Below are positions 10,499 through 47,432 of a DNA stretch of 47,561 nt, in pieces. The notes under the pieces were generated by a model that was given only the letters and a program-made list of their open reading frames with translations, was not told where the DNA came from and ran no database searches. The stretch lies in sequence record PZ324410.1; one strand, 5' to 3'. This DNA is from a phage. The position numbers and the translations under genes are program-made. How positions within the stretch are numbered: the stretch's first letter is position 1; each line of letters opens with the position of its first letter.

Positions 10499-10595
10499 TT
10501 CTTACTCTCCTTTAGAAAACATCTTGACTTAATCTACGTCAATCGTCAATACTTGTTGATGTAGATTGTATCACAAAGAAAAGAGGTGATGTGGA

Positions 10596-10873: not shown

Positions 10874-11068
10874 ATGACAACTAACGAATGCTACGAACAA
10901 TCAATTATCGCACGACTAAACGAAGTAGACCGCACCCGCGACTGGCTTGAGTGTGAATTACGCGAAGTGCGCAACAGGATTCAGTGCAGTAATAGTCAGA
11001 AGAAAGACATTATCGACTGGTCTGGTGACAGGCCGAAGTTTAACAATATTGGGGAGTGGGTAGAATGA
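10874..11068 (+). CDS. hypothetical protein
   Basis: 64-aa ORF; GGAGAGAAAAA upstream of ATG. Confidence 0.5.
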   Translation: MTTNECYEQSIIARLNEVDRTRDWLECELREVRNRIQCSNSQKKDIIDWSGDRPKFNNIGEWVE

Positions 11069-11283
11069 GAAAGCAAAGCACTATAGCTGATTTGGTACTT
11101 GCTGATTTTAGAGAGCAGAGCGCAAGAAATAAACGGCACAAAAACCAGAATGACAACAGAACTTCCATGCAGTGGCTGAAAGATAACTTTGGCAAGAAAT
11201 CGCACAAATACAGAAGGGATAGAGTTTTGCTGATGCTCATTAATTTAAACATGAAGGCAACTATTGCGAGGTTGATGAAGTGA
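11065..11283 (+). CDS. hypothetical basic protein
   Basis: ORF 11056..11283 trimmed to ATG 11065 overlapping previous stop. Confidence 0.45.
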   Translation: MRKQSTIADLVLADFREQSARNKRHKNQNDNRTSMQWLKDNFGKKSHKYRRDRVLLMLINLNMKATIARLMK

Positions 11284-11522
11284 CAGCGCCACATATGCCG
11301 ATGATGAATGGCGAAGGGGTTTTAGAGTGCCCATTATGCCAAGCAACAATAGCTCATGCAGATACCATTGATGGCGAGTGGATTGTTGAATGCTATGAGT
11401 GTGGATGCAGAACTGGTGCTTACATGACCGATAAAGGAGCCATCGAGTCATGGAACACCCGCAACGGACACCTCTACACACCAGAAGACTTCAAACAGGC
11501 AGGTCAGGAGCGAGATTTATGA
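11280..11522 (+). CDS. Lar-family restriction alleviation protein
   Basis: two Cys pairs CPLC...CYECGC and C-terminal AIESWNTR motif typical of Lar family; start may be GTG 11280 or ATG 11295. Confidence 0.55.
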   Translation: MTAPHMPMMNGEGVLECPLCQATIAHADTIDGEWIVECYECGCRTGAYMTDKGAIESWNTRNGHLYTPEDFKQAGQERDL

Positions 11523-11821
11523 CTGGTCGCGAAATTGTTATTAATTACTTCAAGAATCACAAATCAGGAACCCTCCAGCAGATATGCGATTCGCATAGGT
11601 CGCCATTTGCGGTATATGCCAAAGTAAGTTGCGCGCTTCATGATATGCGAGTGCGCGAGGAAGTGAAACTTAGCGGTAAGGTTTACGAGATAGAAGAATC
11701 TATCGGCGTCGACAACATCAAGGTTAAACCATTAACTATCCGCTGTCATAGCTACGTGCCAAAGCAGCATTTCGGCGGCAATAATTACCTGACACAGCTG
11801 CTTCGTGCGGTGCGTGGATGA
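11519..11821 (+). CDS. hypothetical protein
   Basis: ORF trimmed to ATG overlapping previous stop (ATGA). Confidence 0.45.
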   Translation: MTGREIVINYFKNHKSGTLQQICDSHRSPFAVYAKVSCALHDMRVREEVKLSGKVYEIEESIGVDNIKVKPLTIRCHSYVPKQHFGGNNYLTQLLRAVRG

Positions 11822-12912: not shown

Positions 12913-13035
12913 ATGTTCATAACTCAAATCATATTCTTCCTTTCACTTTCTGCCATCTATCCTTCCATTCTGTATCCTCTCGCCACGCTGTCGTGGTGCT
13001 TTATTGCTCTGTGGTATAATTCCGACACGAGCTAA
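12913..13035 (+). CDS. small membrane peptide
   Basis: 40-aa hand-called ORF with strong GGAGGTG RBS. Confidence 0.3.
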   Translation: MFITQIIFFLSLSAIYPSILYPLATLSWCFIALWYNSDTS

Positions 13036-21537: not shown

Positions 21538-21614
21538 TGGTGGACACGGACGGATTTGAACCTTCAATCAGCCGATTATGAGTCGGTTGCTTTAACCAAT
21601 TAAGCTACGCGTCC
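21538..21614 (-). tRNA. tRNA with CAU anticodon (Met or Ile2), CCA encoded
   Basis: hand-folded on minus strand: 7-bp acceptor stem GGACGCG/CGTGTCC, D-arm GCTT-AATTGGTTA-AAGC, anticodon loop CUCAUAA, T-loop GGTTCAAATCC; one mismatch each in anticodon and T stems. Confidence 0.6.
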
Positions 21615-42653: not shown

Positions 42654-42877
42654 TTAATCCGCTTAACCCACAAACCACCCTCCTTAGCTCGTGTTTTAAA
42701 CATCCATCCGTTCCGCACTGCAACCTTATGAAGGTTCACTCTGAATCCCCTTAATCCTTCATTAGCGGTAAACTCATCAAAGTTAAACTCCTTACGATCA
42801 CCAACCAACATATCACGCACGAAATCCCAGACCTCACCAATCGCACTGCCAAATCGGTATTCTTTACTCATCGTCAT
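42650..42877 (-). CDS. hypothetical protein
   Basis: 75-aa ORF, first gene after repeat-rich region. Confidence 0.5.
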   Translation of the reverse strand: MTMSKEYRFGSAIGEVWDFVRDMLVGDRKEFNFDEFTANEGLRGFRVNLHKVAVRNGWMFKTRAKEGGLWVKRIK

Positions 42878-43039
42878 TTATCCCCTTTTTGTTTGGTAAA
42901 AAAAGAATAAAGGTAAAAAGTAAGTTAGTCAAACACATTCACACGGGAATGATTTTTGCTCCGTGTGGGTGGTTGACAGCACACCACAACAGGAGTATAA
43001 CGCTTTCCAGAGGGGCGATTTTTCTTTTATTTTCAATAA

Positions 43040-43275
43040 CTTCGCTTCCAATGGTTAAGATTAGCTCGGGAAGCGGAAATACAGAAAAATCAATGGTTTA
43101 AGTTGTCGCTTCCCAACTTCCCGCTCCCAAGTAAGATTTTCGAAAAAAATTGAGAGTTTTAAAATTCAAAAATTATTTTTCTGGGAAGCGGGAGGCGACA
43201 CAAAAAACACTCAGAAGCGACTGAAAACAAAGAAAAAAATGCTTCCAGGAAATTCAAGGAAGCGCGGGAAGCCAA
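43040..43275. repeat. cluster of GGAAGCG / CGCTTCC iteron-like repeats
   Basis: copies at 43043, 43069, 43109, 43185, 43258 plus variants gcgggaa/gaagcga, both orientations, interleaved with A-tracts. Confidence 0.7.
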
Positions 43276-43304
43276 AAAAAAACTAAAAACCACTAAAAAA
43301 TAAC

Positions 43305-43440
43305 CAGCTAAATTGCTGGTTTTCGTGTTTCTGTAGCTTAAGGTATTAATATCTATAATAAATATAAAGAAGATCTCAATATACTTTATATAGTTAATAA
43401 ACAAAGTTTACTATTAGTAATGTATGTAACTATATATGTT
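43305..43440. other. hairpin plus about 110-bp strongly AT-rich tract (possible DNA unwinding element)
   Basis: ccagc taaatt gctgg hairpin then region dominated by ta/at repeats (tatataaat, tatatag). Confidence 0.4.
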
Positions 43441-43487
43441 AGCTAGCGTACACTAACATTTGGTCGTGTTTTTTCTTTCTCTGTATA

Positions 43488-43516
43488 TTGACGTAGAATC
43501 ACAACTGATATAGATT
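43488..43516 (+). promoter_or_regulatory. sigma70-like promoter TTGACG-N17-TAGATT
   Basis: hexamers with 17-nt spacer about 30 nt upstream of first plus-strand gene. Confidence 0.5.
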
Positions 43517-43546
43517 GAAATCATCGAAACAAGCGAGGGTGAAGAG

Positions 43547-43693
43547 ATGAAAATCAAAGACCGTGAAGAATTTGAAGATGCGCAGGCTATGGCACGCATT
43601 GCAGTTGAGCGCACAAACAACAGCATTCCTGCCGAAGTATTCTGGAACGCTGAAATGCAGGCCTTAATCTCTGCGTATGGGTTAAGCAAATGA
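43547..43693 (+). CDS. hypothetical small protein
   Basis: 48-aa hand-called ORF; GAGGGTGAAGAG RBS. Confidence 0.4.
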   Translation: MKIKDREEFEDAQAMARIAVERTNNSIPAEVFWNAEMQALISAYGLSK

Positions 43694-43873: not shown

Positions 43874-44074
43874 ATGGCAAAGACTATCTATCTTCGCGAA
43901 AAACTGGAACAGGAGCTTGGACACGTTGGCGCGCAGAACTTTATGAGCAGGCAGGTGGAGCGAGCAGTGAAGTCTGCACGATGCTCGAAGGTGTGCCGTG
44001 TATGGCACAAAGATGGTGATAAACGCGTGCTGGACGAGGTAATTATATCTGGACAGGCAAACCATCAGCTTTGA
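43874..44074 (+). CDS. hypothetical protein
   Basis: 66-aa ORF from ORF track. Confidence 0.45.
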   Translation: MAKTIYLREKLEQELGHVGAQNFMSRQVERAVKSARCSKVCRVWHKDGDKRVLDEVIISGQANHQL

Positions 44075-44122: not shown

Positions 44123-44326
44123 ATGAGTGAGTTGGTTATCAAGAGTTGCCCGTTTTGTGGTGGCGAGCCAAAGGTTAAACCATGGCGTTCATATGACCAT
44201 GAGAAACCATACTTCCTGATTCGATGCTCATGCGGGGCTAGAATGACAAACTTCAGGGAGTCTGCAGAGCAGGCAATTGCCGACTGGAATCGCAGGGTTA
44301 ATGTTGATTTATATGGCAAAAGTTAA
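44123..44326 (+). CDS. Lar-family restriction alleviation protein
   Basis: KSCPFCGG...CSCGAR...AEQAIADWNRR, the canonical Lar family pattern; ORF trimmed to ATG 44123. Confidence 0.7.
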   Translation: MSELVIKSCPFCGGEPKVKPWRSYDHEKPYFLIRCSCGARMTNFRESAEQAIADWNRRVNVDLYGKS

Positions 44327-44546
44327 AACATACGAGTTCTGGTTTGTGCGGAACGCAATGTATGCGTGCAAGACAATCAAGCGAGCGCGCTGGTGGAATA
44401 AGTGGTTAATCCTGTCTGGCTGCATTGTGCTGGCAAAGTGCAAATTCAAAGCGATTGACATCACAGATGAGGATGCGCTCAAAATCGCAAAGATTGAGTT
44501 TGAAGAAGATGGTTATTACGAAGAAATTATGGGGGTTAGGGTATGA
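44301..44546 (+). CDS. hypothetical protein
   Basis: ORF 44277..44546 trimmed to first ATG; start uncertain. Confidence 0.4.
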   Translation: MLIYMAKVKTYEFWFVRNAMYACKTIKRARWWNKWLILSGCIVLAKCKFKAIDITDEDALKIAKIEFEEDGYYEEIMGVRV

Positions 44547-45025
44547 GTGAAGTTAAGCGTTATGACCTTGTTGGCGATATGGATGGAAATTGCAACCTTA
44601 ACGAAGCCAGAATGGAACTGTCGGATGATGGTGTTTACGTAAAGCACAATGACTACGCGGCACTCGAAGCCAAATGCACGGCGCTGGCGGCGGAGAATTC
44701 TGGGCTGAAGTCTGGTGCAATCAAGGCCATAGAGGATATTCAATGCTTCTACGATTCGGAAGCCTGGCACGTATCCGAAGATGGGGAAAGCGAGACGGCC
44801 GTTGTTGCACTGGATGATGCAAAAGGTAGTGTTGAGCACTTCGTGCTGAATGTCAAAACCCCGGCTACCTACGCTTCCCTGGCTGAAATTGAACGCAAGG
44901 CAATCCGCAAGTTCATTAACAGCATTGAGCACATCCTGCGTGACAAGTTGTCACCGTATGACACCGAAGAGGTGCTTGAGGCCATGCGTATTTTTCTGGA
45001 AGAACAGGGAGGTGAGCAAAAATGA
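44543..45025 (+). CDS. hypothetical acidic protein
   Basis: 160 aa, about 20 percent Asp/Glu; GGGGGTTAGGG RBS. Confidence 0.5.
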   Translation: MSEVKRYDLVGDMDGNCNLNEARMELSDDGVYVKHNDYAALEAKCTALAAENSGLKSGAIKAIEDIQCFYDSEAWHVSEDGESETAVVALDDAKGSVEHFVLNVKTPATYASLAEIERKAIRKFINSIEHILRDKLSPYDTEEVLEAMRIFLEEQGGEQK

Positions 45026-45318
45026 CAATCACAAAACAACAGGTAGAAGAACAACGCGGAACAGTAAAGGCAAAAACATATTCAGTTCCAAGAATTGCAA
45101 TTCCTCATCCTCCTGATGGTGATGGATATTATGTCAATGTTGTTGAGCTTACTGACTACATGGCATGCCTCAACAGAATTACAGAAATGAGCATTGAGAA
45201 TTATCATATGAAAAATCGAATTGCAGAACTGGAGTCCGCATTGAATCGCCATTATGAGCTCCCTGACGTTTATGATATGGCGATAAAGCAATTCGAAAGC
45301 CTGGCTAAAAGTGAATAG
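45022..45318 (+). CDS. hypothetical protein
   Basis: 98-aa ORF; GGGAGGTGAGC RBS. Confidence 0.5.
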   Translation: MTITKQQVEEQRGTVKAKTYSVPRIAIPHPPDGDGYYVNVVELTDYMACLNRITEMSIENYHMKNRIAELESALNRHYELPDVYDMAIKQFESLAKSE

Positions 45319-46162: not shown

Positions 46163-46297
46163 ATGATTTGTCAAACATGTGGTAAGGAACTTCTTCCTGG
46201 ATGCCGTAAGGATAAGAAGTATTGCTCTCCTTATTGCAAGTTAAAAGCCACGAGGAGGAGAAATGCTGACAGAAAACAGAGAGTTCAAGTGGGATGA
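46163..46297 (+). CDS. small zinc-ribbon-like protein
   Basis: 44-aa hand-called ORF with CQTCG and CSPYC; overlaps HNH start by 35 nt. Confidence 0.25.
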   Translation: MICQTCGKELLPGCRKDKKYCSPYCKLKATRRRNADRKQRVQVG

Positions 46298-46766
46298 TGT
46301 ATTTGATTATAGCGATGGGGTGCTGTCGTGGAAAATTAAGCCTTGCAAGAACATGAAAAAATCATCTCCAGCTGGAACAATGAGAAACGATGGTTACTTG
46401 CAAGTAAGATTCATGAACAAGATACATTTGATTCATAGGATTGTATGGGAAATGTTTAACGGCGAGATACCTGATGGTATGCAGATAGACCACATCAACC
46501 ACGACAGGAGTGACAACAGAATTCAAAACTTAAGGATGGTTACTAAAATATCAAACGGTAGAAATTTGACCAAGAAAACAAATAACACTAGTGGTGTTAC
46601 TGGCGTCTCATGGTACAAAAGCCGGGGGAAGTGGAGGGTGCAAATAATGGTTGACAGAAAAAGTATACACATTGGGTATTTTAGTGATTTTGAATCAGCT
46701 GTTGCCGCAAGGATTTCTGCTAATGAAAGGTATGGGTTCCACAAAAATCACGGAGTGAATTGTTGA
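46263..46766 (+). CDS. HNH homing endonuclease (HNH + AP2-like)
   Basis: LIHRIVWEMFNGEIPDGMQIDHINHDRSDNRIQNLR and GVTGVSWYK motifs; AGGAGGAG RBS. Confidence 0.7.
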   Translation: MLTENREFKWDDVFDYSDGVLSWKIKPCKNMKKSSPAGTMRNDGYLQVRFMNKIHLIHRIVWEMFNGEIPDGMQIDHINHDRSDNRIQNLRMVTKISNGRNLTKKTNNTSGVTGVSWYKSRGKWRVQIMVDRKSIHIGYFSDFESAVAARISANERYGFHKNHGVNC

Positions 46767-46908: not shown

Positions 46909-46936
46909 AACCCGCCTTGTGCGGGTTCTTTTTTTG
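46909..46936 (+). terminator. rho-independent terminator
   Basis: aacccgc cttgt gcgggtt hairpin then TTTTTTT. Confidence 0.65.
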
Positions 46937-47006: not shown

Positions 47007-47432
47007 TTGTCTATGGCTAAAAAGCTATTCAGTAAAGAAAATCAACCACAAAACAAACGCGGGAAAGACAAGCGCAAGTTGCTCGTTGAAGCCCTTGAGA
47101 GAAAGGGGTTTAGTGAGGAAAAACTCTATGACACCATCGTTGAGATGGCGATGATTGAACGTGACACGGCGATGATGAAGGAACTTATCGTTCGATTCAG
47201 CCCGCTACCTAAACCAGTTGCCCCGGTGTTTGAGGTGGACTTCCCTGATGACGGAACTCCGGTACAGAAGATTGATGCCGTTATTCGTGGCATAGCTGCT
47301 GGTGTTATACCTGTGGACATTGGAAAGACATTTGCCGAGGTTATCAGGACAGGACTGGATATTGCCGAAGTTACCGAACTCGCCGCACGCCTTGAGCGAC
47401 TGGAGAAATTACTGGAGCAGCAGAATGCGTGA
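47007..47432 (+). CDS. terS: terminase small subunit (putative)
   Basis: 141 aa, basic N-terminus, coiled-coil C-terminus, directly upstream of terL across the circular junction. Confidence 0.5.
   Translation: MSMAKKLFSKENQPQNKRGKDKRKLLVEALERKGFSEEKLYDTIVEMAMIERDTAMMKELIVRFSPLPKPVAPVFEVDFPDDGTPVQKIDAVIRGIAAGVIPVDIGKTFAEVIRTGLDIAEVTELAARLERLEKLLEQQNA

Follow-up and report, generated by a model that had tools for sequence, protein, structure and literature searches.

The phage sequence record PZ324410.1 (47,561 nucleotides; "the window" below means this whole stretch) is a complete, circularly permuted siphovirus genome that carries two genes of the Lar restriction-alleviation family. We refer to them as copy 1 (11280..11522, + strand, 80 residues) and copy 2 (44123..44326, + strand, 67 residues). 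In copy 1, conserved ends enclose a hypervariable core that recombines among related phages, and this pattern is the only new element of our analysis. Both copies truly belong to the known Lar zinc-ribbon family, were derived independently and are already so annotated in relatives. We are nearly certain of the family assignment, fold and distribution, of the dispensability of the copy-1 orthologue, and of the variability and recombination described here.

To quantify variability in copy 1, we used 53 codon-aligned sequences comprising the window and IMG/VR loci. Median pairwise amino-acid identity was 86% in an N-terminal segment that includes the first Cys knuckle (P7-C20, PMMNxEGxLECPxC; 11298..11339, +). 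It was 76% in a C-terminal segment (WNTRNGHLYTxxDFxQAxxER; 11451..11519, +) that reaches past the Pfam domain, the Pfam match stopping at residue 62. The 37-residue body between these segments (Q21-S57; 11340..11450, +), made up of the beta-hairpin, the second Cys knuckle and the early helix, showed 25% identity, only its two cysteines being conserved. The equivalent of the body lies at approximately 2560-2670 in loci L004-L056. Because the neighbouring conserved genes keep 65-70% identity to the window across those loci, the copy-1 body stands out in its region as unusually variable.

The two termini are under purifying selection and are conserved as protein rather than as DNA, because their synonymous sites are heavily diverged and their non-synonymous sites are not. 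Specifically, the proportions of synonymous (pS) and non-synonymous (pN) differences were 0.66 and 0.09 in the N-terminal segment and 0.50 and 0.14 in the C-terminal segment. We rejected conservation of the N-terminus at the nucleotide level, as would be expected of an embedded signal, since its synonymous sites are saturated. The longest candidate start of the downstream gene in relatives overlaps the C-terminal tail of copy 1 by 11-65 nucleotides, an overlap that may add some constraint to the tail, given its pS.

Alleles of the body fell into 21 clusters among the 53 sequences, three of which contained both lineage-specific tail flavours. For example, the bodies of loci L012 and L033 are 95% identical in nucleotides and 100% identical in amino acids, with tails that are 80% and 72% identical. 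The same body allele thus occurs with different tails, and therefore recombination moves the copy-1 body between phages of the Salmonella/E. coli type and those of the Klebsiella type. Using the Nei-Gojobori method, the non-synonymous/synonymous substitution ratio (dN/dS) among unsaturated pairs was 0.36 for the body and 0.05 and 0.18 for the termini, most body pairs being saturated in these counts. Positive selection in the centre of copy 1 was not shown, as its dN/dS is raised relative to the termini yet remains below 1. The centre allele also did not co-vary with the downstream gene, the type of which tracks lineage and tail flavour.

Having described the variability of copy 1, we turn to family membership, which the earlier note had proposed for both products on the strength of their motifs and which a profile search upheld. 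Both copies exceeded the gathering cut-off (28.6 bits) of the Pfam family Lar_restr_allev (PF14354). Copy 1 scored 36.6 bits (E = 5.3e-9) over residues 14-62, spanning profile positions 3-58 of 58, and copy 2 scored 43.2 bits (E = 4.6e-11) over residues 6-58; the founder protein, RalR, scored 53.5 bits. PHROG 599, "Lar-like restriction alleviation protein", matched both copies at E ~1e-11 (1.5e-11 for copy 1). When all 707 six-frame open reading frames (ORFs) of the window were scanned with a hidden Markov model of the family, only the two copies matched (E = 3e-39 and 5e-14), there was no third Lar copy, and the next best hit had an E of 0.29. The Lar matches are far beyond chance.

Narrower models set the copies apart. 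TIGR03655 (anti_R_Lar), a stricter NCBIfam subfamily model with a curated cut-off of 39.6 bits, was passed by copy 2 at 44.0 bits, and copy 2 also matches the family consensus M..LKPCPFCGGEA...AI..WNRR, in agreement with its description as canonical. The accompanying description of copy 1 as clearly diverged holds in the profile sense, in that copy 1 fails TIGR03655 and has CPLC and WNTR, but does not hold by pairwise identity to RalR; moreover, CPLC and WNTR are ordinary variants inside the Lar family. Neither copy is a RalR equivalog, as they scored 27.4 and 16.4 bits against the NCBIfam equivalog model (NF007260; cut-off 113 bits), on which RalR itself scored 166. A Pfam scan at E up to 10 returned only Lar and other zinc-ribbon families and hence no similarity to lambda Ral. 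A 160-residue ORF at 44543-45025 weakly matched the "Lar-like" PHROG 3592 but is without the zinc-ribbon Cys knuckles; the match looks like label spill-over, and the label is misleading. Part of the same gene is 92% nucleotide-identical to a Stx2c-converting lambdoid phage, pointing to recent mosaic exchange, and its position (with that of 44666-45051) is labelled "EaE protein" in related phages.

The two reading frames and their motifs are as previously described. Copy 1 has a GTG start, no internal stop and a stop codon at 11520-11522, and its product contains CPLC at residues 17-20, CYECGC at 38-43 and AIESWNTR at 54-61. The product of copy 2 contains CPFCGG at 9-14, CSCGAR at 35-40 and AIADWNRR at 51-58. 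Plausible ribosome-binding sites precede both genes, with GAGG 7 nucleotides before the GTG at 11280 and GGTGA 4 nucleotides before the ATG at 44123. Translations of copy-1 orthologues have M at the position of the GTG start, followed by matching N-terminal sequence. The predicted zinc-binding cysteines are C17/C20 and C38/C41 (plus C43) in copy 1, followed by W58-N59-T60-R61, and C9/C12 and C35/C37 in copy 2, followed by W55-N56-R57-R58. These Cys-knuckle and W-N-x-R columns are invariant or nearly so in family alignments. AlphaFold2 models, built from alignments of 41 and 52 sequences, had predicted local distance difference test scores of 83 for copy 1 and 83.5 for copy 2. Both models have one topology, namely a Cys knuckle, a beta-hairpin, a second knuckle and a helix bearing WNxR, with copy 1 having an additional C-terminal helix of lower confidence.

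The copies are truly divergent and non-identical, as the earlier note had stated, with 31% identity over 61 residues (BLASTP, E = 5e-4). BLASTP gave 34% ungapped identity between Rac Lar/RalR and copy 1 (E = 1e-9) and 27% between RalR and copy 2 (E = 5e-7). By pairwise comparison copy 1 is nearer to RalR than copy 2 is, although this ranking reverses on profile models. Either copy resembles RalR more than it does its counterpart, so the pair is not a recent duplication within this genome. The distribution described next points the same way.

With tblastn, 202 phage records contained copy 1, spread over phages of Salmonella, Klebsiella, Escherichia, Shigella and Citrobacter, against only 12 for copy 2. 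All copy-2 carriers that were checked also bear copy 1, and approximately 190 records have copy 1 without copy 2. A search of 5.8 billion proteins with copy 2 returned three relatives, and a search of 1.84 billion cluster representatives returned 550 matches at E up to 1e-3, of which three had E ≤ 1e-10. In Segz_1 and Bas80, copy 2 is absent between adjoining DUF7540 and PHROG 10786 genes, the latter of which is kept in both phages and in KFSST1. Copy 2 represents an uncommon indel or replacement of one gene at that junction, and copy 1 is a syntenic gene of Skatevirus-like phages.

This distribution bears on the idea that the two products pair as a heterodimer, in the manner of the tandem two-domain Lar proteins common elsewhere. 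Among the best 150 family representatives, 53 have two or three Lar units in one polypeptide, which suggests that the domain often works in pairs. However, copy 2 co-occurs with at least four different centre alleles of copy 1, most phages have copy 1 alone, and the two genes lie in different clusters, separated by 33 kb in one direction and by about 15 kb in the other on a circular map. A matched pair is ruled against by the several alleles beside copy 2 and by the many phages with copy 1 alone, and we consider a heterodimer highly improbable.

The two-copy arrangement is already in public annotation and hence not new, because the closest annotated relative, KFSST1, has both of its copies labelled "Lar-like restriction alleviation protein" (CDS0036 and CDS0072) and listed in its published gene table. 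Copy-1 orthologues bear a Lar-like label in many further records, including Skate, Seszw_1, Bas77, K1M and VSt472. Lar-like genes are a routine annotation among these phages, and one close relative is published with both; the presence of the two genes changes little. Skatevirus-like relatives of the window at 80-90% nucleotide identity include Skate, Seszw_1, KFS-SE2, KFSST1, VSt472, Bas77-81 and Citrobacter phage K1M, and the Lar-like genes of Skatevirus relatives are orthologous to those of the window and occupy equivalent genome positions. The KFSST1 orthologues, likewise at equivalent positions, are 90% identical to the window for copy 2 and 57% identical for copy 1. By its body, the window's copy 1 falls into an allele class other than those of KFSST1, Skate and seszw. 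Escherichia phage ECO95 1-6-1 (47,511 bp) and contigs of Salmonella phage S.Kent 1-2-1, neither of them annotated, are near-identical to the window. Their copy 1 is identical to that of the window except at the GTG start, which appears as Val in tblastn, and the next closest sequences are IMG/VR locus L004 (82%) and ASO78B (81%). As a separate observation, the window has a single tRNA-Met (CAT anticodon; 21538-21614, -) according to ARAGORN and Rfam, and the equivalent place in KFSST1 holds tRNA-Met and tRNA-Arg.

Deposited genomes provided information on whether copy 1 is needed. The viable genome-reduced mutants seszw_290S and seszw_170S are missing genes 4-7, including the copy-1 orthologue, gene 6, and we read this deletion from L057 (MZ375352) and L058 (MZ375328) at about 1080-1190. 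Because these mutants are viable, the copy-1 orthologue is dispensable on the laboratory host. Approximately 70 GenBank records named "Salmonella phage seszw" are engineered genome-reduced mutants of this kind, which together form a dispensability map for Skatevirus genes.

Published work on function centres on the Rac prophage protein Lar/RalR of E. coli K-12 (b1348, 64 residues). EcoKI restricts more strongly in E. coli from which Lar has been removed, and the protein is believed to promote de novo methylation (PMC3177214). As relayed by papers citing King & Murray 1995, raised survival and modification of unmodified DNA on hosts with type IA systems (EcoKI) is known for Rac Lar only. RalR has a Pfam family in common with both copies and is of similar length, and the three proteins have a common layout of CPFC knuckle, hairpin, CxxC knuckle, RTG and helix with WNxR. 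In contrast, the copies are only 27-34% identical to RalR, far under the RalR equivalog cut-off, and they belong to a virulent siphovirus whereas RalR lies in a prophage beside recET. Copy 1 further differs in its extra conserved N- and C-terminal extensions and in having Thr in place of the essential K52. Lambda Ral, a phage protein of ~67 residues, is a functional analogue from an unrelated sequence family that alleviates type IA restriction by faster de novo methylation. It acts on type IA systems only, via HsdM's N-terminal domain (PMC12707154), and, like Lar, is believed to stimulate de novo methylation (PMC3177214, PMC12707154).

Extrapolating from the one characterised homologue, the most likely mechanism would be that of a small host-protein-binding modulator of restriction-modification (RM) or another defence. 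Both copies are small single-domain Lar/RalR zinc-ribbon proteins with two Cys knuckles, a beta-hairpin and a helix bearing A-I-x-x-W-N-x-R. Their genes are accessory and non-essential, lie in small-ORF clusters, and are probably expressed earlier than, or separately from, those for structural proteins. If Rac Lar is a guide, each product would most likely bind a host protein complex, classically a type IA RM enzyme. Binding would tip the enzyme to methylate rather than cut unmodified phage DNA, with an effect that would be partial and host-specific. Copy 1 is an old syntenic gene of the Skatevirus-like lineage in which the conserved terminal extensions probably bear a constant function and the recombining hypervariable body probably determines, or escapes, a host target that varies. 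Copy 2 is a generic Lar gene gained or lost sporadically as a single-gene cassette. We place this whole explanation, RM role included, at slightly less than an even chance.

Several observations weigh against the RM account. As noted above, the dN/dS of the body is below 1, and relaxed constraint explains its variability as well as an arms race does. Copy 1 scored 31.5 bits (E = 1.7e-7) on TIGR03655, under the cut-off of that model, on which the Lar-family name would go to copy 2 only. Early expression of both clusters is plausible from position only. Another report describes RalR as a DNase toxin that is non-specific and depends on Mg/Ca (PMC4041452), and the Lar homologue of phage Bas63 mattered on hosts without intact type I systems (PMC11482910), because of which the Lar target may not be the type I enzyme. 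Finally, Skatevirus phages are reported to be markedly RM-sensitive, including Bas77, which has an annotated copy-1 orthologue. This sensitivity would imply that protection by copy 1 is weak or specific to systems other than those assayed. Overall, what has been published speaks against a role that is strong or essential. The earlier note's suggestion of different restriction targets or subfunctionalisation drew no support from the evidence, and the idea of different targets is somewhat weakened by the published phenotypes. Caution is therefore needed with the name "restriction alleviation": it rests on one prophage protein that is also described as a DNase, and phages bearing a copy-1 orthologue are still RM-sensitive.

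Alternatively, one or both copies may counter a defence other than type I RM, such as type IV restriction or another immunity system, or may be recognised by a host sensor; the diversity of copy-1 bodies would be explained in either case. In the PhageMaP study, the Bas63 homologue was more important on strains that have type IV systems and are without intact type I systems (PMC11482910). The 21 recombining allele classes between conserved termini, together with the continued RM sensitivity of Skatevirus phages, also fit such a role. Set against it, the literature we found gives no direct link of any Lar-family protein to another defence, and the dN/dS of copy 1 is below 1. We consider a different defence unlikely, though not negligible.

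An equally unlikely reading would make copy 1 a modular anti-defence protein. Its constant ends would supply activity or docking, and its body would act as a swappable cassette for specificity, of which at least 21 allele classes recombine between Salmonella/E. coli-type and Klebsiella-type phages. Each allele would match or escape a variant of a polymorphic host target, such as type I HsdM/HsdS or an immune sensor, and copy 2 would represent a second, independently acquired specificity. The conserved ends and variable core of copy 1 offer a cheap experimental handle on whether the abundant Lar family has any target specificity.

The reported enzymatic activity of RalR raises the further question of whether the copies are RalR-like non-specific DNases that damage host DNA, acting in host shut-off or as a toxin. 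Purified RalR cut methylated and unmethylated DNA, and its K52Q variant was inactive (PMC4041452). Copy 2 is basic at the position of K52 (WNRR), and both copies keep the equivalent of N51. At RalR toxicity positions 14, 37, 39, 49, 51 and 52, copy 1 has A, T, A, S, N and T, keeping only T37 and N51. The three of these positions read off for copy 2 (49, 51 and 52) are D, N and R, with K52 replaced by R. Across the family, the position of K52 is R 91 times, K 22 times and T 21 times. An Rfam gathering scan of the whole window detected only the tRNA and hence no RalA-type antitoxin RNA, the presence of a RalA model in Rfam being unchecked. We regard a DNase role as quite improbable, more so than action against another defence.

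Gene order around copy 1 is relevant to one more alternative. Immediately upstream is a DUF7301 gene (11056..11283, +; 75 residues; Pfam PF23975, E = 7.8e-16; PHROG 1785), the stop codon of which overlaps the copy-1 start (GTGA). Immediately downstream is a 100-residue ORF (11519..11821, +) that an ATGA overlap couples translationally to copy 1 and for which we found no homologue or family among 53 related loci, PHROGs and Pfam. At this position, 47 of 52 relatives have proteins of ~160 residues that form two clusters and are annotated as winged-helix, MarR or ArsR in some records. The 100-residue ORF may be a strongly diverged or replaced regulator. Relatives conserve the order of DUF7301 gene, copy 1 and ~160-residue putative winged-helix gene, with overlapping start and stop codons. 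This arrangement would suit a copy 1 that is a nucleic-acid- or polymerase-binding zinc ribbon, regulating genes together with the adjoining putative regulator rather than acting on restriction. In the same direction, the closest structural match among zinc ribbons is that of Elf1 in RNA polymerase II complexes, and RalR weakly matches Elf1 by sequence. However, Elf1 (transcription elongation factor 1) gave marginal scores and resembles the copies in fold only; it is eukaryotic and archaeal, without a functional link to them. We think such a regulatory role rather improbable, with about the same standing as the DNase proposal.

Copy 2 is flanked by its own pair of small genes. A DUF7540 gene lies upstream (43874..44074, +; 66 residues; Pfam PF24386, E = 1.4e-33), and a PHROG 10786 gene lies downstream (44313..44546, +; 77 residues; E = 1.2e-42), overlapping the end of copy 2 by 14 nucleotides. 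For both copies, the surrounding small ORFs are tightly packed into a run bounded at its start by a divergent intergenic region and at its end by a terminator-like hairpin. Of the separate early operons that the earlier note had proposed, the two separate clusters of small ORFs stood, while "early" drew on position alone and the promoter-like matches gave it no enrichment. Specifically, a promoter-like site with 9 of 12 consensus positions occurs in the divergent intergenic region upstream of the copy-1 cluster (10524..10553, +), and another consensus match occurs upstream of the copy-2 cluster (43488..43516, +). Promoter-like sites were not enriched over shuffled sequence in either region, with 10 versus 6.5 ± 2.6 for copy 1 and 11 versus 10.9 ± 3.4 for copy 2. 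The terminator-like hairpin that separates the copy-1 cluster from the head genes (12981..12998, +) is the sole such site in its region (2.5 ± 1.6 in shuffles). In the copy-2 region terminator-like sites were enriched (11 versus 3.9 ± 2.0 in shuffles), and a strong one, with a 7-bp stem containing 5 G-C pairs and then a T-run, closes the cluster after an HNH gene (46909..46927, +).

We made several other observations on the surroundings of the two clusters. A 61-residue CxxC...CxxC protein encoded at 12530-12715 matches lambda NinD (PF17466, E = 4.5e-20) and is present in 5 of 53 related loci. A 670-bp gene-free stretch (42877-43547) separates the divergent replication cluster from the copy-2 cluster; it contains a bidirectional terminator-like hairpin (43302-43321) and two promoter-like sites, and may be a control or origin region. 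At the far end of the copy-2 cluster, the HNH endonuclease gene (46263-46766) is followed by the strong hairpin described above, a 141-residue ORF (47007-47432) and an ORF at 1-1425. By position, the latter corresponds to the terminase large subunit of KFSST1, in which this HNH-terminase neighbourhood is kept.
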